NCBI RefSeq assembly: GCF_044324785.1
Contig: NZ_CP172127.1
From: Escherichia coli
GTDB taxonomy: Bacteria > Pseudomonadota > Gammaproteobacteria > Enterobacterales > Enterobacteriaceae
Strand: one strand, 5' to 3'
DNA length: 64,000 bases
The notes under the pieces were generated by a model. It had not been told where the DNA came from and ran no database searches. It saw only the letters and a program-made list of their open reading frames with translations. Positions within the stretch are counted from its first letter, which is position 1. Each line of letters opens with the position of its first letter. The position numbers and the translations under genes were made by a program. Shown one piece after another: positions 15,276-59,419 of this stretch.

Positions 15276-15364
15276 AATGAAGATTTTCCTGATATGCAGA
15301 GATAAAAAATGGGACAGTGGCGTGGTGAAAGCACCAGGCCGGAGCAGAAGGTTATTCTGGAGAG

Positions 15365-15733: not shown

Positions 15734-15812
15734 GATAAAATCCTCACAGAAAATTGGTTAAGAATGGTCCGGTGGTGGCGATAATTCTGCTCTTCTGAAT
15801 GCCCTTCCAGAC

Positions 15813-16034: not shown

Positions 16035-16120
16035 GAGAATAGTCCTCCTGAATGTGAAAGTAAGAAACAGCTGAGAAAGAGAAACTGAAGTGATATGAAG
16101 GTGATTGTGACGGTGACGGG

Positions 16121-16597
16121 TTAAAGCAGACCGTGTTCCGCAAAGGAGAAAACCTGGCTGCCACCGATTATCAGATGGTCCGGTACCCGGATATCCACCA
16201 GGGCCAGTGCCTGTACCAGACGCTCGGTGATAAGGCGGTCTGCCTTGCTGGGGATGACTTCACCGGACGGGTGATTGTGCGCCAGCACCACGGCAGCGGC
16301 ATTGTGGTACAGGGCGCGTTTAATCACCTCCCGGGGATGGACTTCTGTGCGGTTGATGGTGCCAGTGAAGAGGGTTTCACCGGTAATCAGCTGATTCTGG
16401 TTATTCAGATACAGCACCCGGAATTCTTCACGCTCCAGTCCCGCCATGTTCAGAATCAGCCATTCCCGTGCCGCATGCGTGGAGGTGAAGGCCACGCCGG
16501 GTTCATGAAGATGGCGGTCCAGGGCTTTCAGGGCCCGCTGAATGAGGCTGCGCTCGCCGGGTGTCATCTCTCCGGGCAGAAAGGAAAGCTGCTGCAT
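16121..16597 (-). CDS. RadC-like JAB-domain protein (YeeS/YfjY family)
   Basis: HNHPSGEVIPSKADRLITERL JAB/MPN motif; track ORF 16121-16612, start probably MQQLSF. Confidence 0.8.
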   Translation of the reverse strand: MQQLSFLPGEMTPGERSLIQRALKALDRHLHEPGVAFTSTHAAREWLILNMAGLEREEFRVLYLNNQNQLITGETLFTGTINRTEVHPREVIKRALYHNAAAVVLAHNHPSGEVIPSKADRLITERLVQALALVDIRVPDHLIIGGSQVFSFAEHGLL

Positions 16598-16612
16598 TGT
16601 CCCTGCCTCCAT

Positions 16613-17098
16613 TCAGTCGATGATGCGCATAATGGCGCTGCATTCCGGATGCTGCAGGGCATAATCCCGCAGCCGGTAATAATGAACCGTCATGGCATAA
16701 TTCTCTGTACGACAGGCGTGATGGCTGTACGCCATCAGACAGGCGGCAATGCCGGCGGCTTCCGGGCTCATTTCAGCGCGGTTACCGTTCATGACGTTAA
16801 ACAGCACCCATGTTTCGTCATCATCGTCATCCGGTTCAGGTGCCATAAATGCGCCACCGTTGTTCAGGGTGTACAGATTCCAGATGCCCCCGCAGTAGTC
16901 TTCGCACAGACGGTCCATCCAGCCGAAGACACGGGGCTCCAGGGTCACCCACTGTGGAATGAGGCCAAAATGCTGCGGCCAGAAGCTGATGCGCTGTTCA
17001 TCAGGGACGGGAGTGGCAACCAGTTGAGACTGGTTATTCCCTGATGCAGTAGTTACGGAAACAGAAGGTGTGGTGGAGCTATGCGAAAAGGTTGTCAT
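16613..17098 (-). CDS. Antirestriction protein (ArdB/KlcA-like, YfjX/YafX family)
   Basis: 161-aa ORF with conserved core FWPQHFGLIPQWVTLEPRVFGWMDRLCEDYCGGIWNLYTL. Confidence 0.75.
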   Translation of the reverse strand: MTTFSHSSTTPSVSVTTASGNNQSQLVATPVPDEQRISFWPQHFGLIPQWVTLEPRVFGWMDRLCEDYCGGIWNLYTLNNGGAFMAPEPDDDDDETWVLFNVMNGNRAEMSPEAAGIAACLMAYSHHACRTENYAMTVHYYRLRDYALQHPECSAIMRIID

Positions 17099-17189
17099 GA
17101 GATGATTCCTTATAAAAAGTAAATGAATGGAAGAATGCCTGGGGACTGGTACAGACGTGAGTCAGGGCTGCACTTTCAGGGAAACAGCA

Positions 17190-18008
17190 TCAGCGCATGC
17201 TCTCCAGCAGCGTTTCTGCCATCACCCACAACGCCCGGTTGAGCTTAATGTCGGTATCGATGCTGTGAATGGCCCGGGTATGGATACGTTTTCCTCTGGC
17301 ACTGCGACCGGAAATCCCGCCTTTCAGCATATTTTCCTGGATGGTCTGATAAGCACTCCACAGGTCCTTACCGTAATCCTCCCGGCGTCGTGGCGTCAGA
17401 ATGTCGGTAGTGGTGACGGGCTGATGTTCATCACCATAACGGTAAGTCAGCGCCGCCTGTGCCAGCGCCTGGCGTGCCGGTGGCGGCAGGACCAGCGACT
17501 GCATGGCATCACGCTTTTCCTCAATCCGGTCAAACACGCCCACCACTTCGTAAGCACCTTCAATCACCCTGTCCACCACGTTTCCCCGGTGGGGCACCCG
17601 GACTTCTCCCAGCGACTGACCGCAGACCAAGCCATTGGTGCAGATGGCACGAAAATATCCGGGTAACATCTGATAGCTGGATGAACCGTCATGGGAGTTG
17701 AGCAGAATAATTTCAGGCACATGCTGACCGGTTATCTGTCCGGCCCGCCGCAGACGCAGCATATGTTTGGTATATTCCCGGCGGCTCTGGTCGCGCACAC
17801 GGGTCTGGCAGGCGAAGAACGGCTGAAAGCCTTCCCGCTGCAGATTTTCCAGGACGGTGATGGTGGGAATGTACGCATACCGTTCACTGCGGGAGGTGTG
17901 CCGGTCTTCTCCAAAAATACTCGGGACGTGGTACATCAGTTCTTCGCGTGTCAGTGGGCGCTCCCGACGGATCTGATTTACATGACCAAAACGACTGGCT
18001 AATTGCAT
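17190..18008 (-). CDS. DUF932-family protein (YfjQ/YafZ-like)
   Basis: 272-aa ORF in the position between the regulator block and the antirestriction gene; family recalled by eye. Confidence 0.6.
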   Translation of the reverse strand: MQLASRFGHVNQIRRERPLTREELMYHVPSIFGEDRHTSRSERYAYIPTITVLENLQREGFQPFFACQTRVRDQSRREYTKHMLRLRRAGQITGQHVPEIILLNSHDGSSSYQMLPGYFRAICTNGLVCGQSLGEVRVPHRGNVVDRVIEGAYEVVGVFDRIEEKRDAMQSLVLPPPARQALAQAALTYRYGDEHQPVTTTDILTPRRREDYGKDLWSAYQTIQENMLKGGISGRSARGKRIHTRAIHSIDTDIKLNRALWVMAETLLESMR

Positions 18009-22863: not shown

Positions 22864-23810
22864 AAATGCACAACCAACTCTATAGAACTCTTTACCCCCC
22901 CTCTTATCACCTCTGTCAGTAAATTTCGCCTGAATCCCCTTTTATCCATACATCAGAAAAAATGCAATAACGTTCATGGACTCTTTTCTCTGATTTACAT
23001 AAAAACACAGAAAATTACAATGTGATTAATATCGCGTTTTTTTAAAAAATTATATTGACATCATGTTATTTCCTGTAGTTTGCAATAAAAAATTTTCTTA
23101 AAATATTTATATGAATATTTTTGATGCCTCAACATGCTGTCGTTATATAGAGTGTCTTCTCATCATTTATGGTTATTTCTCTCAATGCGCATACGCTCTG
23201 TCAGGGCATGTCTGTAGCTGCCATGATGGGGAATGAGAACTCAGCAAAAGGATTTTGGATGCAGTGAAGTTCTCCCGGAGACGGTTCTTCTGAGGTGGGG
23301 GTGGCATCATATCCTCTTACATAAGATGATGGCGTGCGCGGGAAAGCTTTCTTCTGTACTCAGGTTGTTGTTGGTTATCCCCGGTCGTCATTGTTTTCCT
23401 GACATTAAGATCCTGATTCCAGGATCTATAGCACAGTCGTTTCCTTGTGTGCTGTTATGCTTCTGCTCAGTTCAGAACAATTGCTTCATCCGGCATGGAG
23501 AATTCCGGTGAGTGAGGCAGTAAGAAATGACTGACATGAATGTTATATGTGAAGGGGCCGGAGAGACGTCATAATCAGTATGGCTGTCATTCTGGCTGGA
23601 AAATGCGATCACTTTCCGGGGTAAAAGACAACATGGAAGCTGACGAACGGGATGCTCCGGATGGTCTTTTCAGGGAGGCCTGGGTAAATAATTTCAGAGT
23701 AAATCTGTATGTTTTTTAAACAGTAAAGATCCATGCTGGCCGTGAAAAACTGAAATCAACACTCAGTCTGCATGGATGTCTGAAGATGTTGAGAATGTCG
23801 GGAATGGTAC

Positions 23811-23954
23811 TATACACGTATTTTACTAAGTATTTTTACTAAGCATTTCAGTAAGTGTTATACACGTATTTTCTACTAAGTGTTTTACCAGACATACACG
23901 TATTTTCATAAACACTTCTACAAGTGTTTTCGTTAAGCATTGCTATACACATCC
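23811..23954. repeat. Iteron-like direct repeats in a 1.6 kb AT-rich non-coding region
   Basis: TATACACGTATTTT at 23811 and 23859, ATACACGTATTTT at 23894, degenerate CTATACACATCC at 23943; interspersed ACTAAG and AAGTGTT motifs. Confidence 0.6.
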
Positions 23955-24468
23955 AGTTTAGTAAATCTTTACGTTAACTAAATCAGTTTAATGCTGCTGT
24001 AAAACCTTTCTGTTTAAGCAATCAATCTGCTATTCGATTTTACTGATGTTACGTTTAACCTTTCCTTAGATTTCGAGTTTCGACGTTAGCTTGAGAAAAG
24101 TATCTTTACGTAAAGCCCAGTGAATTAACTCAAATCCGATTGAGGTAACCTGATGCGATTTACTGTGAGTTTGCGATAACACTGTTAAATGGCTTATGGA
24201 TGATTTTGTAACGGCGAGATTGATAAGGTGATTAACTGGCCCTGGTGTTTTTTCTCAGCGTAAGGTGATTATCTTCATCATAAGGCTCTTTTCAGAAAAA
24301 GTGTGATGATTGGTTGTGGTGTTTTGATTCAGATGAGGATCTGCCAATGATTATGATGTATTGTAAGAAATAACGCCTTCAGAATGTTGGAGCATGCACT
24401 TACACAAACTGTTTTTCTAAAATTAAGGGAACAGTTTAAAGAGTATAAACTGTTCATCTTCTTCAGGA

Positions 24469-24999
24469 TTAAGCTACATTGTTGTTATGACTGACAGGAT
24501 TGTTTTCTTCCCCTGACTCTGGGCTTAACAGTCCCTGGCGTTGTAGATATTCACTGACTGACATTCCAGAACTACGGATCCTGTCAGAGATTTTACGAAA
24601 TTGATCCTTCCATTCTGCAGGTAATTTCTTAATTTGTCTGACTTTACAGGCTACACTGTACGGGGTTCGCCCTAGTTTCTCTGCCAGCCAGAAAAGGTGT
24701 TTACCAATTTCATCGTCCGGTACATCCTCCAGAACATCTCGCAATAAACTCTCGTCTGCCTCATTCCATGCCACACCAGCATTTGGGAAACGAGGATCGA
24801 TCTCTCTTTCCTTCTTCTCCTTCTTACTTTGCTCTTTTCGGGATGATACAGATACGACAGAACGTTCTTTTACCGCTGTAATTGCCATAACTGCATTGAG
24901 CAGAGATCTGCGCTCCACATCGTTCAGCATTTTTCCTTCACAGATCAAATCATTCAGGATGTCAATGACTAGATTCAGACTTTCTTCTGTTAGCTTCAT
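24469..24999 (-). CDS. Hypothetical protein, possible DNA-binding (helix-rich, acidic and basic patches)
   Basis: 176-aa ORF; ATG at 24999 with AAGG upstream; 10-bp perfect inverted repeat just 3' of the gene. Confidence 0.5.
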   Translation of the reverse strand: MKLTEESLNLVIDILNDLICEGKMLNDVERRSLLNAVMAITAVKERSVVSVSSRKEQSKKEKKEREIDPRFPNAGVAWNEADESLLRDVLEDVPDDEIGKHLFWLAEKLGRTPYSVACKVRQIKKLPAEWKDQFRKISDRIRSSGMSVSEYLQRQGLLSPESGEENNPVSHNNNVA

Positions 25000-25668
25000 A
25001 TTTCAGACCTTGAAGTATGTAGATAATCAGCACAATTACTAATGTGATAAATATCAGAAGATAATTTACAGGTAAACCGGAAAATACATCTGAAGAATAA
25101 AGGCCTCAGCTTAACGTTTCAGCCAGTTTGTGAGCTGATTGAGGTACGGCGATGACATTAACGGGAATTACTCCCCTATAGCTCTGAGCTTATTTTTCAC
25201 CCTGGCAACATATGGTGGCTACTGCGCATGGTTTTGGAGTAGATATCTTACTACTCGTAGAATTGTGCTTACTGGTCAGGCCAGCGCACAGGCATTCCGT
25301 GCAATCAATAGAACACTGGTTTTTTAGTCTTCCGTTACCCATCAGGATGTTAGTGCAGATTCCGGTGTATTCGATCAGTTGTTCGGCGAATCAGCGATCG
25401 ATCACGATGCGATTTCGTATGTTAGGGATGCTGGTATGATTACTCGCTGAAAAATAATGTGAAAAGGCAGTTTTTCTTTAGACATTTAGCTCATTCATGC
25501 TGTTGTTTTACGTTTTGCTGTCGTGTGCAGGATTATCTTTTCGTTACGGGACGATTCATTCCGTTTTAATCAGGAGCTATTGGCGTTGCTCATTGGTGGG
25601 ATGCCGTAAAGTTTTACCGCGGCGATTAATGATGTGAAGTCAATCCAAATCAACGGAGATCTCTCATC

Positions 25669-33554: not shown

Positions 33555-34574
33555 TCAGCAGCTTTCACGTAAACATAAACAGGGCTCAATGAATATCTGA
33601 TTGCTCCAGTTACCTTCTTTAATTCGTTCCAGCAAAACATTTCCTGCTTCCAGACCAATTTTCCTGTGAGGAACGGCCATTGTTGTTAATGATGGTTGGC
33701 AAACTTTGCTGACGTCACTGTCACCAAATCCTACTACGGCGAGCTCGTCTGGAACTTTGATCCGTCTTCGTTGACATTCATAGAGAACACCGCAGGCTAA
33801 CTCATCTGACACACATACCAGGGCATCCAGTTCCGGCCATGCGAGCAAAAATTCCGGTAGTTGTGATGCTCCGGTGGAAAAAACAGGTGGCAGAGCAGCG
33901 TTAATAACACGGTTGGGAGACATATGATGGCGTAACATAGCTTTATACCATCCCTGTAAATGCTGCTGAAAGATCCACTGTTCCTGGTTAGCGCATAGCA
34001 AACCGATATTCTGATAACCACGTTGTACCAGCATATCCGTCAGCTCGAACATTGCTGCAACATTATCAATACCAATGTTGATATCTATCGGATCAGTACG
34101 AATGGCACCGATTTCTATAACAGGAATCGAGGCATTTTTGAGCAAGTGACGCACGGTACTATTATGCTCAACACTAAGCAAAATTGCTGCAGCGATATTA
34201 GAAGCCAGCAGGGTTTCCAGCAGTTTTTCTTCTTGTTCCAGACGATGGCGTGACTCAGCCAGGATTATTTGATACCCCGCTGGTTGTAGCACATGTTGCA
34301 GCCCGGCAAACATTTCCGTGCATCCCGCTTCAGCCAGGTTTGGCACGACCATTGCGATCGTGTGTGAAGATGCCGATGCCAGTGCGCTTGCAGTGAGGTT
34401 GGGCATATACCCTAATTCATTAACTGCGGCTTCAATCTTCTCCCTCAATTTATCTGAAACTTGTTCGGGAGTGCGTAACGCTCTGGATACAGTCATTGTG
34501 CCAACTCCCGCGAGTTGCGCGACATCAGCAATAGTGACTTTACCTGTACTACGACGTTTTCGGGTTATTGCCAT
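33555..34574 (-). CDS. LacI/GalR-family transcriptional regulator
   Basis: N-terminal HTH VTIADVAQLAGVGTMTVSRALR followed by a periplasmic-binding-like sugar domain. Confidence 0.8.
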   Translation of the reverse strand: MAITRKRRSTGKVTIADVAQLAGVGTMTVSRALRTPEQVSDKLREKIEAAVNELGYMPNLTASALASASSHTIAMVVPNLAEAGCTEMFAGLQHVLQPAGYQIILAESRHRLEQEEKLLETLLASNIAAAILLSVEHNSTVRHLLKNASIPVIEIGAIRTDPIDINIGIDNVAAMFELTDMLVQRGYQNIGLLCANQEQWIFQQHLQGWYKAMLRHHMSPNRVINAALPPVFSTGASQLPEFLLAWPELDALVCVSDELACGVLYECQRRRIKVPDELAVVGFGDSDVSKVCQPSLTTMAVPHRKIGLEAGNVLLERIKEGNWSNQIFIEPCLCLRESC

Positions 34575-34706
34575 ACAAAATCCTGCTCAGCGACTACATA
34601 TGGAGATCTTTTATTACTTATCATCAACGGCTTCCTGCACTGCCAGTAGCAGAGTATACCTCTTAATATCTGCCATAAGTCTGGATTTAATCAGTGAAAT
34701 CTATTT

Positions 34707-34754
34707 TGATAGCGCTATCACAAATTCGAACAATACCTCCTGATAGCGCTATCT
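34707..34754. promoter_or_regulatory. Two LacI-type palindromic operator candidates in the divergent intergenic region
   Basis: Perfect palindrome TGATAGCGCTATCA at 34707-34720; near-copy TGATAGCGCTATCT at 34741-34754. Confidence 0.5.
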
Positions 34755-34825
34755 TTGTGATATTGATCGCAGATATACCGTCGTTACTTGAATACATTCT
34801 GGTCATATAAATAAGAAATTAGGGG

Positions 34826-35275
34826 GTGGGAGTGCTTAATATCTGGCTTTCTGATTCAACAATCGCATTACGAAAGAATGCCGCAACCTGGCAGCAGGCA
34901 TTAGATATCTGTGCCAGACCGTTACTGGATGCAGAGATAATTACGACGGATTATCTCAGTGCGATAAAGACACAACATGAAAAACTGGGGCCTTATTATG
35001 TCCTGGCACCCGGGCTGGCCATGCCGCATGCCCGACCAGAAGAAGGGGCAAAAGGATTAGGTTTATCATTATTAAAACTTGAAGAAGGTGTCAGTTTTCA
35101 TACAGAGGAATTTGATCCTGTAGATGTTATCATTTTACTTGCCGCACCAGACAAACACAGTCATATCGAAATGATATCTGCACTGGCTGAGTTATTCTCC
35201 AGCGAAAAAGATTTACATGAATTGCATCAGGCTCGCAATGTGGAGGAAATAAAAAAGATAATTTCACGGTTCTGA
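34826..35275 (+). CDS. PTS EIIA component (ascorbate/mannitol-type EIIA-2)
   Basis: 149-aa ORF; LAMPHARPE active-site region. Confidence 0.75.
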   Translation: MGVLNIWLSDSTIALRKNAATWQQALDICARPLLDAEIITTDYLSAIKTQHEKLGPYYVLAPGLAMPHARPEEGAKGLGLSLLKLEEGVSFHTEEFDPVDVIILLAAPDKHSHIEMISALAELFSSEKDLHELHQARNVEEIKKIISRF

Positions 35276-35353
35276 TTACATTATAAATTCAGTCTTTTCA
35301 CAACATTGCGCCGTTGCGTGATGGGACTTCTTCAACTTAAAATGGTGAATATA

Positions 35354-35626
35354 ATGAAAATTATGGCTATTTGTGGCTCAGGGCTTGGTAGTAGTTTTAT
35401 GGTCGAAATGAATATTAAAAAAGTTCTGAAAAAAATGGATATAGAGGCGGAAGTGGAACATTCCGATCTCTCATCAGCAACGCCAGGGGCTGCCGATTTA
35501 TTTGTGATGGCCAAAGATATTGCTGCCAGTGCCAGCGTACCGGAAAGTCAGTTGGTGGTTATCAACAACATCATTGATATTAATGAACTCGAAACGCAAC
35601 TGCGTAACTGGTTAGCAAAACAATAA
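35354..35626 (+). CDS. PTS EIIB component (UlaB/SgaB-like)
   Basis: MKIMAICGSGLGSSFM catalytic Cys motif; internal start of track ORF 35306-35626. Confidence 0.75.
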   Translation: MKIMAICGSGLGSSFMVEMNIKKVLKKMDIEAEVEHSDLSSATPGAADLFVMAKDIAASASVPESQLVVINNIIDINELETQLRNWLAKQ

Positions 35627-35642
35627 CCTTAATTGAAGCGAG

Positions 35643-37037
35643 GTGGATATGTTTATCCTTGAAACGCTGAATTTTGTTGTTGATATACTTAAAGTGCCCG
35701 CGATACTGGTCGGCTTGATTGCCTTAATTGGTCTGGTTGCCCAGAAAAAATCTTTTTCAGATGTTGTTAAAGGTACAATTAAAACTATTCTCGGCTTTAT
35801 TGTACTGGGCGGTGGTGCCACTGTTTTGGTTGGTTCGTTAAATCCTCTTGGGAGTATGTTTGAACATGCCTTTAATATTCAGGGCATCATTCCGAATAAT
35901 GAGGCTATTGTTTCTATTGCGCTGGAAAAATATGGCGCATCGACGGCCCTTATTATGGCATTTGGTATGGTGGCGAATATTATTGTTGCCCGCTTTACCC
36001 GCCTTAAATATATCTTCCTGACCGGACACCACACATTTTACATGGCCTGCATGATTGGTGTGATTCTGACAGTGGCTGGTTTTGAAGGTATATCACTGGT
36101 CTTTACCGGTTCTCTTATTCTGGGACTTGTGATGGCATTTTTCCCGGCATTAGCACAACGCTATATGAAGCGTATTACGGGGAATGATGACATTGCTTTT
36201 GGTCACTTTGGCACTCTGGGATATGTACTTTCTGGCTGGATTGGCAGCGTGTGCGGTAAAGGTTCCCGCTCCACCGAAGAGATGAATTTGCCCAAAAATC
36301 TGAGCTTCCTGCGCGACAGTTCCATCTCTATTTCTCTTACGATGATGGTGATTTATCTGATCATGGCGATCAGTGCTGGTCGTGAGTTCGTTGAAAGCCA
36401 GTTCAGTGGTGGTCAAAACTACCTTGTCTACGCCATCATAATGGCCATCACCTTCGCTGCTGGTGTATTTATTATTCTGCAAGGCGTGCGTTTAATCCTT
36501 GCTGAAATAGTTCCGGCATTTACCGGGTTTTCAGAAAAGCTGGTGCCGAATGCCCGTCCGGCCCTCGATTGCCCGGTTGTGTATCCGTATGCGCCAAACG
36601 CAGTGTTAGTTGGTTTCTTGTTTAGCTTTTTTGGCGGTCTGGTAGGGCTATTTTTGTTGGGACAGATGAAACTGGTGTTGATTCTTCCGGGTGTCGTTCC
36701 TCACTTTTTTACCGGGGCGGCTGCTGGCGTATTTGGTAACGCTACGGGGGGACGTCGTGGCGCAATGATTGGTGCTTTTGCGAATGGCTTATTGATTACC
36801 TTCCTGCCAGTACTGTTATTGCCGGTTCTTGGGGCGATAGGCTTTGCTAATACGACCTTTTCCGATGCAGATTTTGGTGCTGTCGGCATCGTCCTCGGAA
36901 ACCTGGCACGTTATCTCTCACCTTTTGCCATCACCGGACTTGTAGTAGCGCTATTTGTGCTGCTGGTTGCCTGGAACATTTTCGCCAGTAACAAAATCGC
37001 TGCCAAAGCGCAGAAGAAGAGTGGAGCCAAATCATGA
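35643..37037 (+). CDS. PTS EIIC permease (UlaA/SgaT family)
   Basis: 464-aa polytopic membrane protein immediately after EIIB. Confidence 0.8.
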   Translation: MDMFILETLNFVVDILKVPAILVGLIALIGLVAQKKSFSDVVKGTIKTILGFIVLGGGATVLVGSLNPLGSMFEHAFNIQGIIPNNEAIVSIALEKYGASTALIMAFGMVANIIVARFTRLKYIFLTGHHTFYMACMIGVILTVAGFEGISLVFTGSLILGLVMAFFPALAQRYMKRITGNDDIAFGHFGTLGYVLSGWIGSVCGKGSRSTEEMNLPKNLSFLRDSSISISLTMMVIYLIMAISAGREFVESQFSGGQNYLVYAIIMAITFAAGVFIILQGVRLILAEIVPAFTGFSEKLVPNARPALDCPVVYPYAPNAVLVGFLFSFFGGLVGLFLLGQMKLVLILPGVVPHFFTGAAAGVFGNATGGRRGAMIGAFANGLLITFLPVLLLPVLGAIGFANTTFSDADFGAVGIVLGNLARYLSPFAITGLVVALFVLLVAWNIFASNKIAAKAQKKSGAKS

Positions 37038-37864
37038 ATGTTAAAGAATTGACTCAATTTGCACGGGATATACGTATCCAGACGCTTAAATCATTAACTC
37101 ATCTCGGCTTCGGTCATTATGGTGGCAGCATGTCGGTTGTGGAAACGCTGGCAGTGCTTTATGGCGCTGTAATGAAAATTGATCCTGCTGCTCCCGACTG
37201 GCCTGAGCGTGACTATTTTATCCTGTCCAAAGGACATGCCGGACCTGCTCTCTACAGTACTCTGGCGCTGAAAGGCTACTTTCCACTGGAAGAATTAAGC
37301 ACCTTAAATCAGAACGGAACCCGCTTACCAAGTCATCCGGATCGGCTAAAAACGTGTGGTGTTGATAGCACCACAGGATCGCTGGGGCAGGGGATATCCA
37401 TTGCCGGAGGGATGGCGCTGTCGCATAAACTGGCGGGGCGCAAGAATCGGGTTTTTTGTATTGTCGGCGATGGCGAACTTAATGAAGGCCAATGTTGGGA
37501 AGCTTTCCAGTTTATCGCGCATCATCGTTTGAATAACCTCACTGTGTTTGTGGACTGGAACAAACAGCAGCTTGATGGTCAACTGGATGAAATTATTAAT
37601 CCATTTGATTTGGAAGGAAAATTCCGGGCTTTCGGTTTTGATGTCGTGACAGTGAAGGGCGATGATATTGAGGGCTTGTTGAATGTAGTTAAACCTGTCC
37701 TGCCAGCTGAGGCCAGACCGAGAGTGGTCATTCTCGATAGCATTAAAGGGCAGGGGGTGCCGTGTCTCGAGCAACTCAGTAATTCTCATCACTTACGCCT
37801 CACAGAAGAGATGAAGGGGACGCTAAACGAAACAATTCGCCAACTGGAGGCTATGCATGATTAA
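37034..37864 (+). CDS. Transketolase, N-terminal (TPP-binding) subunit
   Basis: GHAGPALY and CIVGDGELNEGQCWEA TPP-binding motifs; stop overlaps next gene. Confidence 0.85.
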   Translation: MNVKELTQFARDIRIQTLKSLTHLGFGHYGGSMSVVETLAVLYGAVMKIDPAAPDWPERDYFILSKGHAGPALYSTLALKGYFPLEELSTLNQNGTRLPSHPDRLKTCGVDSTTGSLGQGISIAGGMALSHKLAGRKNRVFCIVGDGELNEGQCWEAFQFIAHHRLNNLTVFVDWNKQQLDGQLDEIINPFDLEGKFRAFGFDVVTVKGDDIEGLLNVVKPVLPAEARPRVVILDSIKGQGVPCLEQLSNSHHLRLTEEMKGTLNETIRQLEAMHD

Positions 37865-38810
37865 TCTCGCACCGGCAGGACAAAAAGACAGCATTGAAAT
37901 GCGCAAAGTTTATGCAGATTTTATCGCGCAACAGAGTAAAAACGTCAGTTCTGTCATTGCTCTTGAGGCTGATTTAATGAGTTCCATGGCAATGGACAGC
38001 GTGGCGCAGGATTATCCAGATCACGTCATTAATTGCGGCATTATGGAAGCCAATGTTATCGGCACAGCTGCAGGGCTGGCCTTAACCGGGCGCAAGCCAT
38101 TCGTGCATACCTTTACCGCATTTGCCAGTCGTCGCTGTTTTGATCAACTCTTTATGTCGCTTGATTACCAGGGCGCTAACGTCAAAGTTATAGCTTCTGA
38201 TGCGGGTGTTGCTGCTTGCCACAATGGCGGAACACATATGTCATTTGAAGATATGGGAATTGTGCGCGGGCTGGCGCATTCGGTGGTGATGGAGATGACA
38301 GATGCCGTAATGTTCAGCGATATCTTGCGTCAACTCGTTGCACTGGAAGGATTTTATTGGATTCGTACCATTCGGAAGCAAGCAGCGAGTATTTACGCAC
38401 CAGGTACAACCTTTACAATTGGCAAAGGGCAGGTATTACGTGAAGGTACGGATGTCACCTTAATTGCTAATGGCATTATGGTGGTGGAAGCCCTGGAGGC
38501 CGCACGTCAACTTGAGCTGGCTGGGGTAAGTGTAGCGGTGATTGATATGTTTACGCTCAAACCCGTTGATCGGATGTTAATTAAAAATTATGCCGAAAAA
38601 ACAGGACGGATCGTAACATGTGAAAACCATAGTATTCATAATGGATTAGGTTCAGCGGTTGCTGAAGTGCTTGTAGAAACTTGTCCTGTGCCCATGCGTC
38701 GGGTGGGGGTTAAAGAGCGGTATGGCCAGGTTGGAGCTCAGGACTTTTTACAGAGAGAGTACGGGTTAACCGCGCAAGATATTGTGGCGGCAGCCAGAGA
38801 GCTATTGTAA
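37857..38810 (+). CDS. Transketolase, C-terminal subunit
   Basis: 317-aa ORF; transketolase pyrimidine-binding and C-terminal domains; 8-bp overlap with the N-terminal subunit gene. Confidence 0.85.
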   Translation: MINLAPAGQKDSIEMRKVYADFIAQQSKNVSSVIALEADLMSSMAMDSVAQDYPDHVINCGIMEANVIGTAAGLALTGRKPFVHTFTAFASRRCFDQLFMSLDYQGANVKVIASDAGVAACHNGGTHMSFEDMGIVRGLAHSVVMEMTDAVMFSDILRQLVALEGFYWIRTIRKQAASIYAPGTTFTIGKGQVLREGTDVTLIANGIMVVEALEAARQLELAGVSVAVIDMFTLKPVDRMLIKNYAEKTGRIVTCENHSIHNGLGSAVAEVLVETCPVPMRRVGVKERYGQVGAQDFLQREYGLTAQDIVAAARELL

Positions 38811-39080
38811 TTCATGGAGTTTGTTTACCATTCTGTTTTTCTTAAAAGTGAGTGTCTGTGCGGTCACTAAACTCGGTAATAAAGCAGTTCATTGCAGGAT
38901 AAGAAGCGTTTGGTTGTGTCGTTTTACCGTAAGAACCGACCGCCGTATGTAGCCATTAAGCCAGTATTGGTAACGTAGGTGCCCACCTTTTCAAACTGGT
39001 GGACGCCTGTTATGGAGCAAAAACATTATCCGCAGAACCCCGCAGATCATTTTCAAATGAGTTAAACTTCAAATGGTTAA

Positions 39081-39185
39081 ACTGGTTTTGCAACCAGGAG
39101 CCTCTGTTGCCCGTATTGCCCGGGAACACGATATCAATGATAACCTCCTGTTCAAATGGCTCAGACTCTGGCAGAACGTAAGGTA
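39081..39185 (+). pseudogene. IS66-family OrfA remnant
   Basis: LVLQPGASVARIAREHDINDNLLFKWLRLWQN matches the IS66 orfA at 58994-59419 (ASQPGACVAQIARENGVNDNVIFKWLRLWQNEG). Confidence 0.45.
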
Positions 39186-39272
39186 AAGGGAGATGAAAAA
39201 GGCAATAGCAGAACTGAGTGACAGTGAAACCATTCTGGCGTACAGGGTTGGATGGTGAAACTGATAAAAAAC

Positions 39273-39300
39273 CCCCTCTGAAATTCTGTCAGAGGGGCTA
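39273..39300 (-). terminator. Terminator-like GC hairpin with T-tract on the minus strand
   Basis: CCCCTCTGA..TCAGAGGGG stem; minus strand continues GTTTTTTATC. Confidence 0.35.
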
Positions 39301-40036
39301 GTCAATAAGGGAATAATATTCAACATGAAGATGTCTTCTGGGAATGTTTATATAGCAAATGCTTTCACTCCGGTAATTAATTTCCGTGATTAACTGCTTT
39401 CGATCAATAAAGGAATTGCAAAAGTGTGATCTTGTTCACGACATCGTGGATAATAATATGCCTGATGTCTGAATCCGGAAACAGTGCTCTGGCGGGTTTC
39501 ATGTGAAGTTGACGGATAAAAAATCCGCACGACCAGACAGACGTGCGGTTTACGAAATTCGTAACAAGAGGCTTTTCTACGGATCACGTGGTGCGTGCCA
39601 CGTGAAATTTTTGTAGCGCAAAATGTGTGATGTGTAAATACAAGGAAGGAAAAAAGTTAAATCGGTGGAAGTCCATACCTGCCACGTGTACGTCTGCATT
39701 CCTCGTTTTGAACAGAATTCTCACCAGACATCGTGAATTTCTCATTCAATCATCAGAGATATTAACCAGGATTTTTATTGTTTTGTGATATCAGCAGTGC
39801 AGGTATACAGACATTAAAGTAATCAGGTTTATTATAACCACCTTTACAAAGTTGTATGTGTTTATAATTTAAGGATTTTAATGCCAGTCGTTTTCTGCTG
39901 CTTAAATTGAGGTCGCATATTATACACAATAATATTCCTGGCATTATTAAATTAATAAAAGAGGATTCTTATCACTGTATTTTTGCTCCGCACTACCGTT
40001 CTGGCTGGTGAAGTAATAATACAGGAGAATAACAGA

Positions 40037-41233
<1,197 letters not shown>

Positions 41234-52843: not shown

Positions 52844-54814
52844 ATGTATATGAATGTAATCAGAACTGTCATTTGTACATTAATTATAGTCCCGGTGGGA
52901 CTACAGGCAGCGACCAGTCATTCTTCTATGGCTAAAGATACAATCACCATTGTCGCGACAGGAAATCAGAACACGGTATTTGAAACGCCGTCGATGGTCA
53001 GTGTCGTCACGAATGACACACCGTGGAGTCAGAATGCGGTTACATCGGCCGGCATGCTGAAAGGTGTTGCCGGTCTCAGCCAGACTGGTGCAGGACGGAC
53101 CAATGGGCAGACCTTTAATCTACGCGGCTATGACAAAAGCGGGGTACTTGTTCTTGTTGACGGCGTCCGCCAACTCAGTGACATGGCAAAAAGCAGTGGC
53201 ACTTATCTGGATCCGGCTCTTGTCAAACGTATCGAAGTTGTCCGCGGGCCAAACTCCAGTCTGTACGGCAGTGGCGGGCTGGGAGGTGTAGTGGACTTCA
53301 GAACTGCCGATGCAGCAGATTTCCTTCCCCCCGGAGAGACAAACGGTTTAAGTCTGTGGGGAAATATTGCCAGTGGTGACCACAGCACAGGCTCGGGGCT
53401 CACCTGGTTCGGTAAAACCGGAAAAACAGATGCGCTCCTTTCTGTCATTATGCGTAAAAGAGGTAATATCTATCAAAGTGATGGTGAGCGCGCACCTAAC
53501 AAGGAAAAACCTGCAGCCCTGTTTGCGAAAGGCTCTGTCGGTATAACAGACAGTAACAAAGCAGGTGCCAGCTTGCGTCTCTACCGGAATAACACCACTG
53601 AACCGGGCAATCCCACTCAGACACATGGTGACAGCGGCCTGCGTGACAGAAAAACAGTACAAAATGACGTACAGTTCTGGTACCAGTACGCTCCTGTGGA
53701 TAACAGCCTCATCAATGTAAAGTCAACGTTATATCTCAGTGATATCACTATCAAGACAAACGGTCACAACAAAACGGCAGAATGGAGAAACAACAGAACC
53801 TCCGGTGTTAATGTTGTCAACAGGAGTCATACTCTGATTTTTCCGGGAGCCCATCAGTTAAGTTATGGCGCTGAATATTACCGTCAGCAGCAGAAGCCAG
53901 AAGGCTCTGCCACACTATATCCGGAAGGAAATATTGACTTTACATCGTTGTATTTCCAGGATGAAATGACAATGAAAAGCTACCCTGTTAACATTATCGT
54001 CGGTTCCCGCTATGACCGGTACAAGAGCTTCAATCCCCGTGCCGGAGAACTGAAAGCCGAACGCCTGTCCCCAAGGGCGGCGATTTCAGTCTCACCGACA
54101 GACTGGCTGATGATGTACGGCTCCATATCCTCTGCATTCCGAGCGCCCACAATGGCAGAAATGTACAGGGATGATGTACATTTTTACCGCAAGGGTAAAC
54201 CCAATTACTGGGTTCCTAACCTTAATCTGAAACCAGAAAATAACATCACCCGTGAGATTGGCGCAGGTATTCAACTGGATGGCCTGCTTACAGACAATGA
54301 CCGGCTGCAGTTAAAAGGCGGATATTTCGGAACGGATGCCAGAAACTATATTGCCACACGCGTGGATATGAAACGGATGCGTTCTTATTCTTATAATGTA
54401 TCCCGGGCCCGTATCTGGGGATGGGATATGCAGGGAAATTACCAGTCTGATTATGTTGACTGGGTGCTTTCTTATAACCGGACGGAAAGTATGGATGCCA
54501 GCAGCAGGGAATGGCTGGGCTCCGGCAATCCTGACACACTTATCAGTGACATCAGCATACCTGTTGGTCATAGAGGCGTTTATGCCGGATGGCGTGCTGA
54601 ACTTTCAGCATCAGCCACGCATGTGAAAAAAGGCGACTCCTATCAGGCTGGCTATGCCATACATTCCTTTTCACTGTCTTATAAGCCTGTAAGTGTTAAA
54701 GGCTTTGAGGCGTCAGTAACTCTGGATAATGCCTTCAACAAGCTTGCCATGAATGGCAAAGGTGTGCCGCTTTCAGGCCGAACTGTCAGTCTTTATACCC
54801 GTTATCAGTGGTAA
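52844..54814 (+). CDS. TonB-dependent outer-membrane haem/haemoglobin receptor (ChuA/ShuA-like)
   Basis: 656-aa ORF; signal peptide, plug-domain GYDKSGVLVLVDGVRQ, C-terminal beta-barrel ending YQW. Confidence 0.8.
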   Translation: MYMNVIRTVICTLIIVPVGLQAATSHSSMAKDTITIVATGNQNTVFETPSMVSVVTNDTPWSQNAVTSAGMLKGVAGLSQTGAGRTNGQTFNLRGYDKSGVLVLVDGVRQLSDMAKSSGTYLDPALVKRIEVVRGPNSSLYGSGGLGGVVDFRTADAADFLPPGETNGLSLWGNIASGDHSTGSGLTWFGKTGKTDALLSVIMRKRGNIYQSDGERAPNKEKPAALFAKGSVGITDSNKAGASLRLYRNNTTEPGNPTQTHGDSGLRDRKTVQNDVQFWYQYAPVDNSLINVKSTLYLSDITIKTNGHNKTAEWRNNRTSGVNVVNRSHTLIFPGAHQLSYGAEYYRQQQKPEGSATLYPEGNIDFTSLYFQDEMTMKSYPVNIIVGSRYDRYKSFNPRAGELKAERLSPRAAISVSPTDWLMMYGSISSAFRAPTMAEMYRDDVHFYRKGKPNYWVPNLNLKPENNITREIGAGIQLDGLLTDNDRLQLKGGYFGTDARNYIATRVDMKRMRSYSYNVSRARIWGWDMQGNYQSDYVDWVLSYNRTESMDASSREWLGSGNPDTLISDISIPVGHRGVYAGWRAELSASATHVKKGDSYQAGYAIHSFSLSYKPVSVKGFEASVTLDNAFNKLAMNGKGVPLSGRTVSLYTRYQW

Positions 54815-54832
54815 CCTCTCAGGAAATAAATC

Positions 54833-55624
54833 ATGATGAAAAATACAGGCTATATCTTAGCTCTTTGTCTGACAGCATCGGGGCATGTCCTGGCCCATGA
54901 TGTCTGGATTACCGGCAAACAGGCAGAGAACAACGTTATCGCAGAGATTGGTTATGGTCATAATTTCCCCTCAAAGGGCACGATTCCTGACAGAAGGGAT
55001 TTCTTTGAAACTCCCCGGCTTTATAACGGGAAAGAGACAATAACGCTGAAGCCAACATCCACGGATTATGTCTATAAAATTGAGTCTGCAGGCAACGGTA
55101 ATAGCTACGTTCTGTCAACGAAAATGAAACCGGGATACTGGTCGAGAACCTCGTCAGGATGGAAGCCTGTCAGCCGGGAGGGCAGAAATGATGTGGCATA
55201 CTGTGAGTTTGTGACTAAATATGCAAAATCTTTTATTCCTGGTGAACAGCAGATGCCAGCACAACTCTATCAGTATCCAATAGGGGATGAGCTTGAAATC
55301 ATTCCGTTATCCGATATCAGTCGTTTCGGTGAAGATGTGAAGCTGAAAGTTCTGTATAAAACTTCCCCGCTTGCCGGAGCCACTCTGGAGCTTGACTCTG
55401 TCAGTTATCTGAAATCATCCCGCCATACTCATGCGGCAGAGCATAAACATTCGGCTCATAAAGCAGAACTTACCTTTGTAAGTAATGAGGACGGTATCAT
55501 CACTGTACCCTCCCTTCATGTCGGGCAATGGCTAGCTAAAGTCAAAAATAAGAAAGTATTTCAGGACAAAAACCTGTGTGATGAAACTGTCGATGTGGCA
55601 ACCTTAAGCTTCTCCCGAAATTAA
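54833..55624 (+). CDS. Periplasmic DUF4198-like protein adjacent to the haem receptor
   Basis: 263-aa ORF; signal peptide followed by AHDVWI; 18 bp downstream of the receptor gene. Confidence 0.5.
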   Translation: MMKNTGYILALCLTASGHVLAHDVWITGKQAENNVIAEIGYGHNFPSKGTIPDRRDFFETPRLYNGKETITLKPTSTDYVYKIESAGNGNSYVLSTKMKPGYWSRTSSGWKPVSREGRNDVAYCEFVTKYAKSFIPGEQQMPAQLYQYPIGDELEIIPLSDISRFGEDVKLKVLYKTSPLAGATLELDSVSYLKSSRHTHAAEHKHSAHKAELTFVSNEDGIITVPSLHVGQWLAKVKNKKVFQDKNLCDETVDVATLSFSRN

Positions 55625-56038
55625 TAATACTATTCCTGCCCTGTAATTTACGGGCAGGGTATATCAACCGGAAATAGCCTACTGACATCCATGTATAAAG
55701 CCACATAATTATTTTGTTGATGTATCTTACCTAATACGTAAGCGTAAAGCCAATGCCGTCTGTAACTCCTGATCCTTGCAGACTAAATGTAAGCGCTCCT
55801 TCTGTGCCGTCTTGTGGTGGTTGTCCTGTCTGGCAACAATCGCGTCCATCTATTGATGGACACGAATGATGAATTCTCAGACAACAAAAGATATCACCGG
55901 CTTTCGCTCTTATTTTCCAGATGTATTGCGACTAATATTCGAAGAGCAATTATCTGTTCGGGCTATCGCACTGGAGCAGTTAGGCCTCAGTCATTCCACC
56001 GTTCATAATATCTTTCAACGGTTTAATGCCTCTGGCAT

Positions 56039-56111
56039 GTAAGCGTAAACCGACCGTTGTATTGACGCTTATTTATAGGGGAGAACTACGTTCCATGGCA
56101 GGAGTTCGTCA
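56039..56111 (-). repeat. Isolated 73-bp IS66-family terminal fragment
   Basis: GTAAGCGTAAACCGACCGTTGTATTGACGCTTATTTATAGGGGAGAACTACGTTCCATGGCAGGAGTTCGTCA, near-identical to the end of the IS66 copy at 56994. Confidence 0.55.
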
Positions 56112-56182
56112 GTAAGCGTACAGCCTGAACCGTCTGGTCAGAATCTGACGCATTAGACAAAGTGGTGTCCACAAAATAAGTA

Positions 56183-56584
56183 GTGGGAACCAAAGTGTCA
56201 GATATGCAGAAAAATGTGACTCCCGGCAGGCGAAAAGGCTGCCCTAATTATCCTCCCGAATTTAAACAGCTGCTCGTTGCTGCCTCCTGTGAACCCGGGA
56301 TATCCATCTCAAAACTTGCTCTTGAAAATGGCATTAACGCCAATCTGTTGTTCAAATGGCGACAACAATGGCGCGAGGGAAAGCTGCTATTACCTTCTTC
56401 AGAGAGCCCCCAGCTACTTCCTGTGACTCTCGATGCAGCTGCCGAACAGCCAGAATCGCTCGCAGAGGACCCGGAAACCCTCAGTATCAGCTGTGAGGTA
56501 ACGTTCCGGCACGGGACGCTCCGCTTCAATGGCAATGTCAGCGAAAAGCTCCTGACTCTGCTGATACAGGAACTGAAACGATGA
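56183..56584 (+). CDS. IS66-family OrfA
   Basis: 133-aa ORF; homologous to the orfA at 58994-59419. Confidence 0.7.
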   Translation: MGTKVSDMQKNVTPGRRKGCPNYPPEFKQLLVAASCEPGISISKLALENGINANLLFKWRQQWREGKLLLPSSESPQLLPVTLDAAAEQPESLAEDPETLSISCEVTFRHGTLRFNGNVSEKLLTLLIQELKR

Positions 56585-56928
56585 TCCCGTTACCTTCCGG
56601 GACCAAAATTTGGCTGGTTGCCGGTATCACCGATATGAGAAATGGCTTCAACGGCCTGGCTGCGAAAGTACAGACGGCGCTGAAAGACGATCCCATATCC
56701 GGCCATGTTTTCATTTTCCGGGGCCGCAGCGGCAGTCAGGTTAAACTGCTGTGGTCCACCGGTGACGGGCTGTGCCTCCTGACCAAGCGGCTGGAGCGTG
56801 GGCGCTTCGCCTGGCCGTCAGCCCGTGATGGCAAAGTGTTCCTTACGCAGGCGCAGCTGGCGATGCTGCTGGAAGGTATCGACTGGCGACAGCCTAAGCG
56901 GCTGCTGACCTCCCTGACCATGCTGTAA
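56581..56928 (+). CDS. IS66-family OrfB
   Basis: 115-aa ORF; LPSGTKIWLVAGITDMRNGFNGLA; homologous to orfB at 58647-58997. Confidence 0.75.
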   Translation: MIPLPSGTKIWLVAGITDMRNGFNGLAAKVQTALKDDPISGHVFIFRGRSGSQVKLLWSTGDGLCLLTKRLERGRFAWPSARDGKVFLTQAQLAMLLEGIDWRQPKRLLTSLTML

Positions 56929-57023
56929 ATCTCTTTATCCTGGTTGTCACAGAATAAGCCCGGTAAAATACGGGCTTATGAACGACATCTCTTGTAAGCG
57001 TCAACGGAGCACCGTATTGACGC

Positions 57024-58616
57024 TTATTTATTGGTGAGTACTACGTTCCATGGCAGGAGTTCGTCAACACAGTTGGAGGGCCATTCCGGCAGTACGCTCA
57101 GAATATGGCGCAGATACGCTTCCGGATCGATACCGTTCAGACGGCAGGTGCCGATCAGCCCGTACAGCAGTGCTCCACGCTCGCCGCCGTGATCGCTACC
57201 GAAGAACACGTAATTTTTCTTTCCGAGACAGACTGCACGAAGCGCTCTTTCCGCTGTGTTATTGTCCGCTTCTGCCAAACCATCATCACTGTAATAACAG
57301 AGGGCGTCCCACTGATTCAGTACATAGCTGAACGCTTCGCCCAGTCTGGATTTTTTCGACAGCGTGCCATTCTTCTCCACCATCCATTCATGCAGCGACG
57401 TCAGTAACGCTTTGCTTCGCTGCTGCCTGGCTGCAAGACGCTCTGACTCTGGTAATCCCCGTATTTCATCCTCGATGGCGTACAGTTCACTGATTCACTT
57501 CAGGGCTTCTTCTGCCGTCGCACTTTTGCTGCTGATGTATACATCGTGGATTTTTCGCCGGGCATGGGCCCAGCACGCAACTTCTGTCAGTGCACCACCT
57601 TCACGTTCTGCACTGAACAACCTGTCGTAACCTGTGAACGCATCCGCCTGCAGGATACCCCGGAAGGGGCGAAGGTGTTGCTCCGGGTGTTTCCCCTGCC
57701 GGTTCGGCGAGTACGCGAACCAGACCGCTGGAGGAGATGACGAACCCACATTGCGATCATCCCGGACATACGTCCAGATACGCCCTGTTTTCGCCTTTTT
57801 CTGACCCGGTGCCAGTACCTTTACCGGTGTGTCATCAGTGTGAACCTTGCGGGTGTTCATTACATAACGGTACAGGGCATCATTCACCGGTGTCATTAAC
57901 TGGCAGCACGCGTCAACCCAGTTGGAGAGTAAGGCCCGGCTCAGTTCGACACCCTGGCGGGCAAAGATTTCACTCTGACGATACAGTGGCAGATGTTCGC
58001 AGTATTTTCCCGTTAACACGCGGGCAAGTAATCCGGGGCCCGCGATACCACGCTCTATCGGGCGGGACGGCGCCGGTGCTTCAACAATACAGTCACATTT
58101 TGTACAGGCTTTTTTTACCCGTTCTGTGCGGATCACTTTCAGGGCACTGCTCACCAGTTCCAGCTGTTCAGCGCTGACTTCCCCCAGATAATCCAGCTCA
58201 CCGCCACACTCCGGGCAACAGCTTTCTTCTGGCTCCAGGCGGTGTATTTCACGGGGAAGGTGTGCCGGTAACGGACGACGATGGCGCGACTGTCGCAACT
58301 GGCGGGGAACCTGAGGATCGTCTTCCCGCCCACTGTAACGATCGCTGTCCTGTTCACGTTGTTTCAGCAGAGCCTCAGCCAGTTCAACTTCACGACGCAG
58401 TTTTTCAGAACGGGTACCGAACAGCATCCGGTGCAGTTTTTCTATCTGAGCCCGCAGATGTTCTATTTCCCGTTCATCTTCTTCGATCTTTTCTTCGGCA
58501 CGTGCCAGTGCAGAGCGCAGGAAGGCCTCCGTCTCTTCAACCAGACTCAGTTGCTGGTCTTTCTGACGGAGCTGGCTTTCCAGTTCTGCAATGCGAATGA
58601 GGTATTTCTGACTCAT
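57024..58616 (-). pseudogene. IS66-family transposase (OrfC) with in-frame TGA nonsense codon
   Basis: Track ORFs 57495-58616 and 57024-57383 share one frame; TGA at 57495-57497; reading through gives ...TAEEALK*ISELYAIEDEIRGL... Confidence 0.75.
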
Positions 58617-58646
58617 GGCCGTTTTTATAATGCGGCCAGGCGTTTT

Positions 58647-58997
58647 TTACAACATTGTCAGTGCGTTAAGGCGGAATGTTTTTGGCTGACGCCAGTCCAG
58701 CTTATCGAGGAGCATTGCCAGTTGCGAGCGGGTAATGGATACCTTGCCGTCACGTACCGCAGGCCAGATAAACTGGCCTTCCTCCAGGCGTTTGGTGAAC
58801 AGGCACAGACCATCAGCATCAGCCCAAAGAATTTTGACGGTGTCACCCCGTCGGCCACGGAAGATAAACAGGTGACCGGAGAAGGGATTATCATTCAGCA
58901 CATGTTGTACCTGTTCTCCCAGTCCGTTGAAGGATTTACGCATATCGGTAACGCCGGCAACGAGCCAGATACGGGTACCTGATGGGAGTGAGATCAT
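58647..58997 (-). CDS. IS66-family OrfB
   Basis: 116-aa ORF; LPSGTRIWLVAGVTDMRKSFNGLG. Confidence 0.8.
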   Translation of the reverse strand: MISLPSGTRIWLVAGVTDMRKSFNGLGEQVQHVLNDNPFSGHLFIFRGRRGDTVKILWADADGLCLFTKRLEEGQFIWPAVRDGKVSITRSQLAMLLDKLDWRQPKTFRLNALTML

Positions 58998-59419
58998 CTT
59001 CCCCTCCCGGTCAGTTCACGGATCAACACTGTGAGCAGCTCTGGCGATGGATTTTCCAGCGTCATGTTACCGTGACGGAATTCCACCTTGCAGGAACTGG
59101 CACTGACTCTGGTCTGAGTGGAAGTGGATAAAGACGGCGCAATGGCCGCCACAGGTTCTTTCTGCTCATCCGGCGTTATTTCTACAGGTAATAATTCAAC
59201 GCCAGTGTCAGAAGAGGTCGTTACCGGAAGACGCCGCGAAACACGCCCTTCGTTCTGCCAGAGCCTGAGCCATTTGAAAATAACATTATCATTGACGCCA
59301 TTTTCACGTGCAATCTGTGCAACACAAGCTCCAGGTTGTGATGCCAGTTCCACCATACGAAGTTTGAATTCATTCGAATAGTTTTTACGAGGTTCTTTTC
59401 GCCAGTCCTGTAATTCCAT
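58994..59419 (-). CDS. IS66-family OrfA
   Basis: 141-aa ORF; ASQPGACVAQIARENGVNDNVIFKWLRLWQ. Confidence 0.75.
   Translation of the reverse strand: MELQDWRKEPRKNYSNEFKLRMVELASQPGACVAQIARENGVNDNVIFKWLRLWQNEGRVSRRLPVTTSSDTGVELLPVEITPDEQKEPVAAIAPSLSTSTQTRVSASSCKVEFRHGNMTLENPSPELLTVLIRELTGRGR

Follow-up and report, generated by a model that had tools for sequence, protein, structure and literature searches.

The window analyzed here is a stretch of 64,000 nucleotides from Escherichia coli (NCBI RefSeq assembly GCF_044324785.1, contig NZ_CP172127.1), and the element in question is a pair of genes within it: a gene for a TonB-dependent receptor, followed 18 bp later (54815-54832) by a gene for a secreted protein of 263 amino acids from the DUF4198 family (Table 1). 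An earlier note, made from the sequence alone, had described this arrangement and had placed the pair between a degenerate IS2-like element and a pile-up of IS66 copies. The list of open reading frames (ORFs) confirms the coordinates of both genes, and ORFs together with RefSeq annotation bear out both flanking insertion sequences (ISs). Flank annotation was taken from the RefSeq record of the identical region in the avian pathogenic E. coli (APEC) strain IMT5155 and transferred to window coordinates by an offset of 40599. The intergenic gap contains a ribosome-binding site for the second gene, and the two genes stay side by side at all orthologous loci, which supports an operon organization.

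Table 1. Coordinates of the gene pair, its predicted control elements and its flanks in the window
Feature	Position	Strand	Basis or remark
TonB-dependent receptor gene, 656 aa	52844-54814	+	ORF list
DUF4198 gene, 263 aa	54833-55624	+	ORF list
Predicted Zur operator, AAAATGTTAT-GTT-ATAACATTTT	52800-52822		two perfect 10-bp inverted arms, 3-bp spacer
Candidate sigma-70 promoter, TTGCAT, 16 nt, TATAAC (-10 at 52812-52817)	52790-52817	+	read from sequence; Zur box overlaps
Second candidate promoter, TTAACA, 18 nt, CATAAT	52755-52784	+	consensus scan
Ribosome-binding site of the DUF4198 gene, AGGAA	54821-54825	+	read from sequence, inside the 18-bp gap
His-rich loop of the DUF4198 protein, residues 196-211, SSRHTHAAEHKHSAHK	55418-55465	+	alignment of 89 relatives
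Stem-loop past the operon, CCTGCCC, 10 nt, GGGCAGG, without U-run	55635-55658	+	read from sequence
Upstream flank: IS3-family (IS2-like) transposase pseudogene, frameshifted, internal stop	51634-52677	+	RefSeq annotation; ORF fragments
Downstream flank: nested IS66-family tnpA/tnpB/tnpC copies	56183-59419		ORFs and RefSeq annotation

The predicted Zur operator is positioned 22 bp 5' of the receptor ATG and agrees with the Zur consensus published for E. coli, RNNNYRNNRYNNYRNNNY (PMC5916954). A scan with the Zur consensus gives 3 mismatches over 23 positions at this site, while no other site in the window has fewer than 7. The same 23 positions match AATGTTATNNNATAACATT exactly, the sole other match in the 64 kb having 3 mismatches, and they are also an exact match to AATGTTAT-N3-ATAACATT. 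The znuA/znuC operator of strain K-12, GAAGTGTGATATTATAACATTTC, is a less perfect palindrome than the site in the window. The 16-bp operator core TGTTATGTTATAACAT (52802-52817) is identical to the core of the hlyII operator of strain J96, which E. coli Zur bound very tightly in an electrophoretic mobility shift assay, more so than the L31p promoter (PMC5916954). The hlyII genes form the second haemolysin operon of the uropathogenic E. coli J96, and the flanks around their Zur box are unrelated to those in the window, so the identical core is no case of simple promoter capture.

Two candidate promoters precede the receptor gene (Table 1), and the TTGCAT hexamer of the first is invariant across the three E. 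coli alleles compared: that of the window, in an island on the cadC side of the chromosome; that of the serX/iro island (FDAARGOS_1262); and that of pUTI89-type IncF plasmids. Whichever candidate is used, the Zur box would lie on the promoter or just downstream of it. The earlier note had read the pair as an iron-acquisition cassette, to be checked by looking for a Fur box upstream of 52844. Such a box is not there: over the 350 bp that precede the receptor gene, nothing comes closer than 7 mismatches out of 19, equal to the background level (a very degenerate site being possible), no match with 3 or fewer mismatches to the 19-bp consensus occurs anywhere in the window, and the Zur operator is found instead. 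A control locus, the Citrobacter hemP-hemR-hemS-hemTUV cluster, displays the reverse of the window, with a Fur box at 2 mismatches and a best Zur match at 9/23. The ireA promoter was uninformative as a control for the Fur scan, with no match at 5 or fewer mismatches despite its siderophore-receptor annotation, and the Citrobacter locus was used in its place. Judged from the DNA sequence, control of the operon by Zur is very probable.

The operator recurs well outside of E. coli. In the IncF allele, the serX-island allele and Salmonella, the Zur box precedes the start by approximately 44 bp, and the distance to the receptor start ranges from 39 to 76 bp over all three E. coli alleles, Salmonella, Providencia and an unassigned metagenome contig; in Providencia and the unassigned contig the core of the box is present. 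We compared the 250-bp upstream regions of these four lineages for common k-mers. The 14-bp core TGTTATGTTATAAC is the only k-mer of at least 8 nucleotides common to all of them, and the longest k-mer common to all four in 500 shuffles was 6. A conserved footprint across four lineages indicates that the box belongs to the receptor gene rather than to sequence further upstream.

The receptor carries the Pfam domains Plug (E 1e-23; plug at residues 45-149) and TonB_dep_Rec_b-barrel (E 1e-36; barrel at residues 238-629), preceded by a TonB box, DTITIVA (residues 32-38). Its identity to the haem receptor ChuA is 42% over the whole protein, and its matches among solved crystal and cryo-EM structures are ChuA (PDB 9DHE, E 2e-166) and ShuA (3FHH, E 2e-162). 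The likeness to ChuA and ShuA of E. coli and Shigella extends to the fold family, the length, the TonB box, the FRAP box and the histidine of loop 7 (His420 in ChuA, His446 here). By contrast, the window receptor has a lysine for His86 and NLNL for the NPNL motif, and both loop 7 and the apex of the plug are remodelled; its gene has a Zur box in place of a Fur box and is followed by a DUF4198 gene, not by a gene of the chuS/chuTUV type. The residue-level statements on ChuA come from alignments to the PDB entries.

The loss of the plug-domain histidine is a property of a whole clade. Among 111 full-length relatives, the position of ChuA His86, which aligns with Lys116 of the window receptor, is occupied by lysine (6) or isoleucine (1) in the seven clade members, all at least 47% identical to the window receptor, and by histidine in all 104 ChuA-like proteins, which stand at 43-45%. 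In each of the seven clade members, the next gene was traced to be a DUF4198 gene. The NPNL motif is more variable, reading NLNL in the E. coli receptor and NPDL or NPNL in other orthologues. In ChuA, both His86 and His420 are reported to be ligands of the haem iron and to be needed for the extraction of haem from haemoglobin; the H86A mutant is strongly impaired in growth on haemoglobin (PMC12241658). Substitutions specific to the clade cluster at the plug apex (90-91, 98-99, 114-118, 138-139) and around loop 7 (442-453), that is, close to where ChuA has its two haem ligands. The ligand pocket is clearly remodelled; the sequence itself gives no sign of the new ligand. None of the haem-utilization genes (hemS/chuS, hemTUV/chuTUV) is linked to the pair in the window or in the eight other contexts examined, whereas all are present at the Citrobacter control locus. 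The description of the gene in the earlier note as a haem-type receptor is correct as to its family, ChuA/ShuA by sequence, but finds no support as to a role in haem or iron uptake, against which stand the lost His86, the missing Fur box and the lack of linked haem genes.

Pfam assigns the second protein to DUF4198 (PF10670; E 8e-25), with 88.6 bits where the cutoff is 34. Its N-terminus resembles a signal peptide, ending in VLA before HDVW, and the first 20 residues are the low-confidence stretch of an AlphaFold model that was built on 89 relatives and has a mean predicted local distance difference test score of 90.7. The mature N-terminus is His22, a residue invariant in 89 of 89 relatives; His43, in a GYGH motif, is present in 82 of them. 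The closest solved relative is Zcp of Neisseria gonorrhoeae (PDB 9MHI, E 3e-22). Foldseek ranks the Zcp structures first, with template modelling (TM) scores of 0.72-0.84 (9MHL 0.74-0.84), followed by a Ni-bound DUF4198 structure, 9GCB (0.64-0.77), and the predicted fold is the three-layer beta sandwich of Zcp. Cys124 and Cys249 align with the disulphide pair of Zcp (C127-C250) and are invariant in the subfamily.

Zcp (NGO1049) is a Zur-regulated periplasmic homodimer that buffers periplasmic zinc; each of its subunits coordinates a single zinc with His29, His31 and His142 (PMC12663993). The window protein shares with it (structures 9MHI-9MHO) the DUF4198 domain, the three-layer beta sandwich, the cysteine pair and a Zur operator upstream of the transcription unit. 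The two also differ: identity is only approximately 24-30%, the zinc triad is absent, and only the window protein has an internal His-rich loop, which is also unlike the C-terminal His tail of 'cluster 2' (PMC12663993). For the gene in the window, co-transcription with a TonB-dependent receptor is predicted; zcp, by contrast, is reported to have a Zur box directly in front of its own start. The loop is an insertion specific to the subfamily, with gaps at its positions in 66-78 of the 89 relatives; it stays rich in histidine in every orthologue, e.g. EEHHHHDHQ...AHGGQH, and its low model confidence is expected of a flexible loop. The subfamily is rare, with 213 representatives among 1.8 billion at E <1e-3 and one species-representative genome. 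The published zinc triad of Zcp is not conserved across the 89 relatives either, and the DUF4198 family may share a metal site at the N-terminal histidine, one that N-terminal extensions of recombinant proteins would mask. From sequence and model, the window protein would be of a periplasmic metal-capture type outside the Zcp triad group. The earlier proposal of a haem- or metal-binding partner can be retained in its second half, for a secreted DUF4198 protein with a structural homologue in Zcp is plausibly metal-binding, but the haem and iron side finds no support.

The pair is widespread in E. coli, where we found it in 1190 of 5426 complete genomes (~22%), at 424 chromosomal and 819 plasmid places. 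The plasmid records matched number 762, mostly conjugative IncF plasmids, and 30 of them are from Klebsiella. Within E. coli, extraintestinal pathogenic lineages with IncF plasmids of the pUTI89 type are its main carriers (in pUTI89 itself the receptor gene is at 38296-40266), and the locus of the window is 100% identical to that of several avian and human extraintestinal strains. Neighbours differ between the three E. coli alleles, and IS fragments border all of them; with the Klebsiella plasmids included, both the neighbours and the IS fragments are different in each context. Portable cassette is a fair description of such a pair, the IS copies on its flanks being fragmentary. Of the portable iron-acquisition cassette that the earlier note had envisaged, the portability stands, being evident from the flanking ISs, the several chromosomal islands and the plasmid records, while the iron part is unsupported, given a Zur box and no Fur box.

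Orthologous pairs are present in Salmonella enterica (including subsp. diarizonae), Providencia rettgeri, the unassigned metagenome contig and the Klebsiella plasmids; a scan of species-representative genomes yielded a single locus, in Salmonella diarizonae. Distant orthologues display 47-55% identity to the window receptor and 38-51% to the DUF4198 protein. Both ORFs are intact and conserved in length in all alleles, and the ratio of non-synonymous to synonymous divergence (dN/dS) between alleles is 0.10-0.23 for both genes, which indicates purifying selection on the pair and no decay. Synonymous divergence itself is uneven: between E. coli alleles it reaches 0.21-0.27 in the DUF4198 gene and 0.03-0.09 in the receptor gene, i.e. 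3-6 times higher in the former, which suggests recombination within the operon. Among the Klebsiella pneumoniae plasmid loci, one has an IS66 fragment just upstream and a longer called receptor ORF of 707 amino acids.

Taken together, the Zur operator, the lost His86, the absence of linked haem genes and the Zcp-like partner point to zinc, not iron, as the most likely metal. We consider the locus to be probably a mobile two-gene operon for TonB-dependent zinc acquisition under repression by Zur. What the sequence shows is the operator and its recurrence in several genera, a receptor clade that is without His86, a partner with a Zcp-like fold, and purifying selection on both genes. We infer that Zur represses the operon in vivo, that zinc is the cargo and by which route the metal is handed over in the periplasm. 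With sufficient zinc, Zn-loaded Zur would occupy the palindrome, which overlaps or abuts the promoter, and transcription would be blocked. When zinc is scarce, e.g. under calprotectin-mediated withholding by the host, Zur would leave the operator and both genes would be expressed as one unit. The receptor, a ChuA-derived barrel with a remodelled pocket that has lost the plug histidine and kept that of loop 7, would then transport a zinc-bearing ligand into the periplasm with the help of the host cell's TonB-ExbBD, which it would engage by its TonB box; free Zn2+, a zinc chelate and host-derived zinc are candidate ligands. The DUF4198 protein would capture or buffer periplasmic zinc via His22 and His43 and/or the His-rich loop, and the chromosomal ZnuABC/ZinT would complete the import into the cytoplasm.

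Receptors of this kind have precedents. ZnuK and ZnuL of Caulobacter are Zur-regulated TonB-dependent receptors that supply zinc (PMC4176598), and, like ZnuD/TdfJ of Neisseria and Acinetobacter, they share with the window receptor the location in the outer membrane, the dependence on TonB and the Zur operator, which is predicted in our case. The window receptor is nevertheless no orthologue of ZnuD: a His/Asp-rich zinc loop was not found in it, and it is paired with a DUF4198 protein. Membership in the ZnuD family was rejected, as the NCBIfam model NF038289 (of the 'exception' model type) scores 46.7 bits against a cutoff of 950 and matches the plug region only.

Besides the failed ZnuD assignment, a number of observations weigh against a zinc operon. 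The receptor exceeds the cutoff of the NCBIfam family of TonB-dependent haem/haemoglobin receptors (TIGR01785; 414 bits against 316.85), it keeps the FRAP box, and its His446 is invariant in all relatives examined; in ChuA, moreover, His86 and His420 are conditionally dispensable for the uptake of free hemin (PMC12241658). We found no clade-specific gain of histidine, cysteine or an acidic cluster that could make a zinc site in the receptor. At the positions aligned with the zinc triad His29/His31/His142 of Zcp, the partner protein has K, A and E/Q. The family is not limited to zinc either, as the Ni-bound structure 9GCB demonstrates, and in Caulobacter a DUF4198 gene and a 'hemin receptor' gene (CC2193-CC2194) are strongly regulated by Fur and iron (PMC3751524). 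In the Klebsiella plasmid allele, the left half of the Zur box (~4960-5015 in the K. pneumoniae plasmid loci) is lost and only the centre and the right half are kept; regulation of this allele may have been altered by IS insertion. Finally, linkage to a CobW/COG0523 gene, entertained as evidence for zinc, carries little weight. Of the alleles, that of the serX/iro island alone has the gene downstream of the pair (FDAARGOS_1262, 13045-14244); it is absent from the window, whose homology to that allele ends approximately 120 bp past the DUF4198 stop. Its protein has ZigA as its best match, with 187 bits against a cutoff of 600, the CxCC motif is lacking (...FVSITSDSISS...), and no Zur box of its own was found.

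Part of these observations would equally serve the view that the receptor imports haem, or haem derived from haemoglobin, as an iron source and that the DUF4198 protein is its periplasmic haem or iron partner. The family score, the identity to ChuA with the structural matches at E ~1e-166, the retained His420 equivalent and FRAP box, and the import of free hemin by ChuA without His86 under some conditions all agree with it. So does the Caulobacter pair, in which a DUF4198 gene likewise adjoins the gene of a TonB-dependent receptor annotated as a haem receptor; that pair, however, is under Fur where the window has a Zur box, and its proteins are only distantly related to ours. The plasmid allele is known in the literature on pRS218 and pUTI89 as a "putative hemin receptor" or "TonB-dependent heme/hemoglobin receptor" and is counted there as iron acquisition (PMC4155114, PMC11748317), but neither paper has an experiment behind the label, which is annotation. 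The same scan that detects a Fur box at a true hemR locus finds none here and a conserved Zur operator instead, His86 is lost throughout the clade, and hemS/chuS, hemTUV or haem oxygenase genes are missing from every context examined. We therefore regard haem import as unlikely. Since the DUF4198 family is not tied to a single metal, as Zcp crystals and the Caulobacter case attest, it is the operator and not the protein family that decides the metal here.

A reading intermediate between haem and zinc has the receptor take up a tetrapyrrole under zinc control, either zinc protoporphyrin IX (Zn-PPIX) as a source of zinc or haem in a zinc-sparing response. Zinc protoporphyrin IX accumulates in the blood in iron deficiency. 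The receptor retains the ChuA scaffold, the His420 equivalent and the FRAP box and is short of just one axial histidine out of two, a pattern that would be chemically consistent with a single axial ligand; the Zur operator is present as well. The argument is purely inferential, however: the locus offers no means of freeing zinc from a porphyrin, and the His-rich DUF4198 partner suggests free periplasmic metal ions. We hold this proposal to be rather doubtful. The same low standing belongs to a bolder variant of zinc acquisition, in which a descendant of a haem receptor, still able to bind tetrapyrroles, has been repurposed for zinc piracy, binding a five-coordinate zinc porphyrin such as Zn-PPIX or taking zinc from a host protein, with the His-rich DUF4198 protein collecting the metal in the periplasm.

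It is quite improbable that the pair serves the uptake of nickel or cobalt, although the DUF4198 family includes nickel-binding proteins of the NikK type and TonB-dependent nickel uptake is known. The structural match to Ni-bound 9GCB, a weak sequence match to NikK (E 0.2) and the binding of Ni, Co and Cu by Zcp crystals as well (PMC12663993) are compatible with such a role, but the operator is a Zur box and not a NikR or RcnR site, Zcp rather than NikK is the closest protein by both structure and sequence, and neither nikMNQO nor urease or hydrogenase genes are linked. An inert, decaying cargo trapped between insertion sequences, as the IS-rich mosaic with its many surrounding pseudogenes might suggest, can hardly be reconciled with two intact ORFs of conserved length, the low dN/dS and the presence of the pair in over a thousand complete E. 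coli genomes.

To our knowledge, the established Zur regulon of E. coli (znuABC, zinT, ykgMO, pliG) includes no outer-membrane zinc transporter. Zur-regulated TonB-dependent zinc receptors are already known from other bacteria, as is a Zur-regulated zinc-binding DUF4198 protein. What would be new in the zinc operon proposed here is the combination: a receptor of the ChuA lineage without one of its haem ligands, a co-transcribed DUF4198 protein that has a His loop and lacks the triad, a canonical E. coli Zur operator, and spread by ISs and IncF plasmids through pathogenic E. coli. A literature search that did not cover subscription journals found no paper linking the E. coli operon to zinc. The CFT073 locus tags c1265-c1267, looked for in a zinc context, were likewise not found in any paper. 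The receptor goes unmentioned in Velasco et al. 2018 and Haas et al. 2009.

If the assignment to zinc is true, the "putative hemin receptor" of approximately one fifth of sequenced E. coli would have to be reinterpreted and a widely copied annotation corrected. The operon would provide a candidate answer to how zinc passes the outer membrane of extraintestinal pathogenic E. coli (ExPEC) under withholding by the host, the scoring of plasmid virulence cargo would change, and a surface-exposed, infection-induced protein would be added to the targets for vaccines and inhibitors. The DUF4198 family, in turn, would have its second zinc-linked member, one that is amenable to genetics and differs in its metal site. 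Should the piracy of zinc from porphyrin or host proteins prove true, it would mean TonB-dependent zinc piracy on pandemic ExPEC plasmids and a substrate class not so far described for zinc uptake.

Several minor features of the surroundings complete the picture of the locus. The stem-loop past the operon is kept in the serX-island allele but was not called by the terminator scan, and can be assigned a candidate role only. The pair lies within a chromosomal island of mosaic structure, on the cadC side, which also includes ireA (~23208-25256 in the window) and a cluster of transketolase and phosphotransferase system genes (~33898-37876). Inside the island, a gene resembling ugpB, for a glycerol-3-phosphate binding protein (49180-50496, minus strand), stands alone with no adjacent ugpAEC; its neighbours are an IS110 pseudogene and small PemK/MazF fragments. 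Directly 3' of the DUF4198 gene, the APEC strain IMT5155 has an extra copy of the IS66-family element ISCro1 (15328-17943) that the window lacks (55625-56180), from which it follows that the window comes from a sister strain and that the IS66 insertion at this spot is recent.

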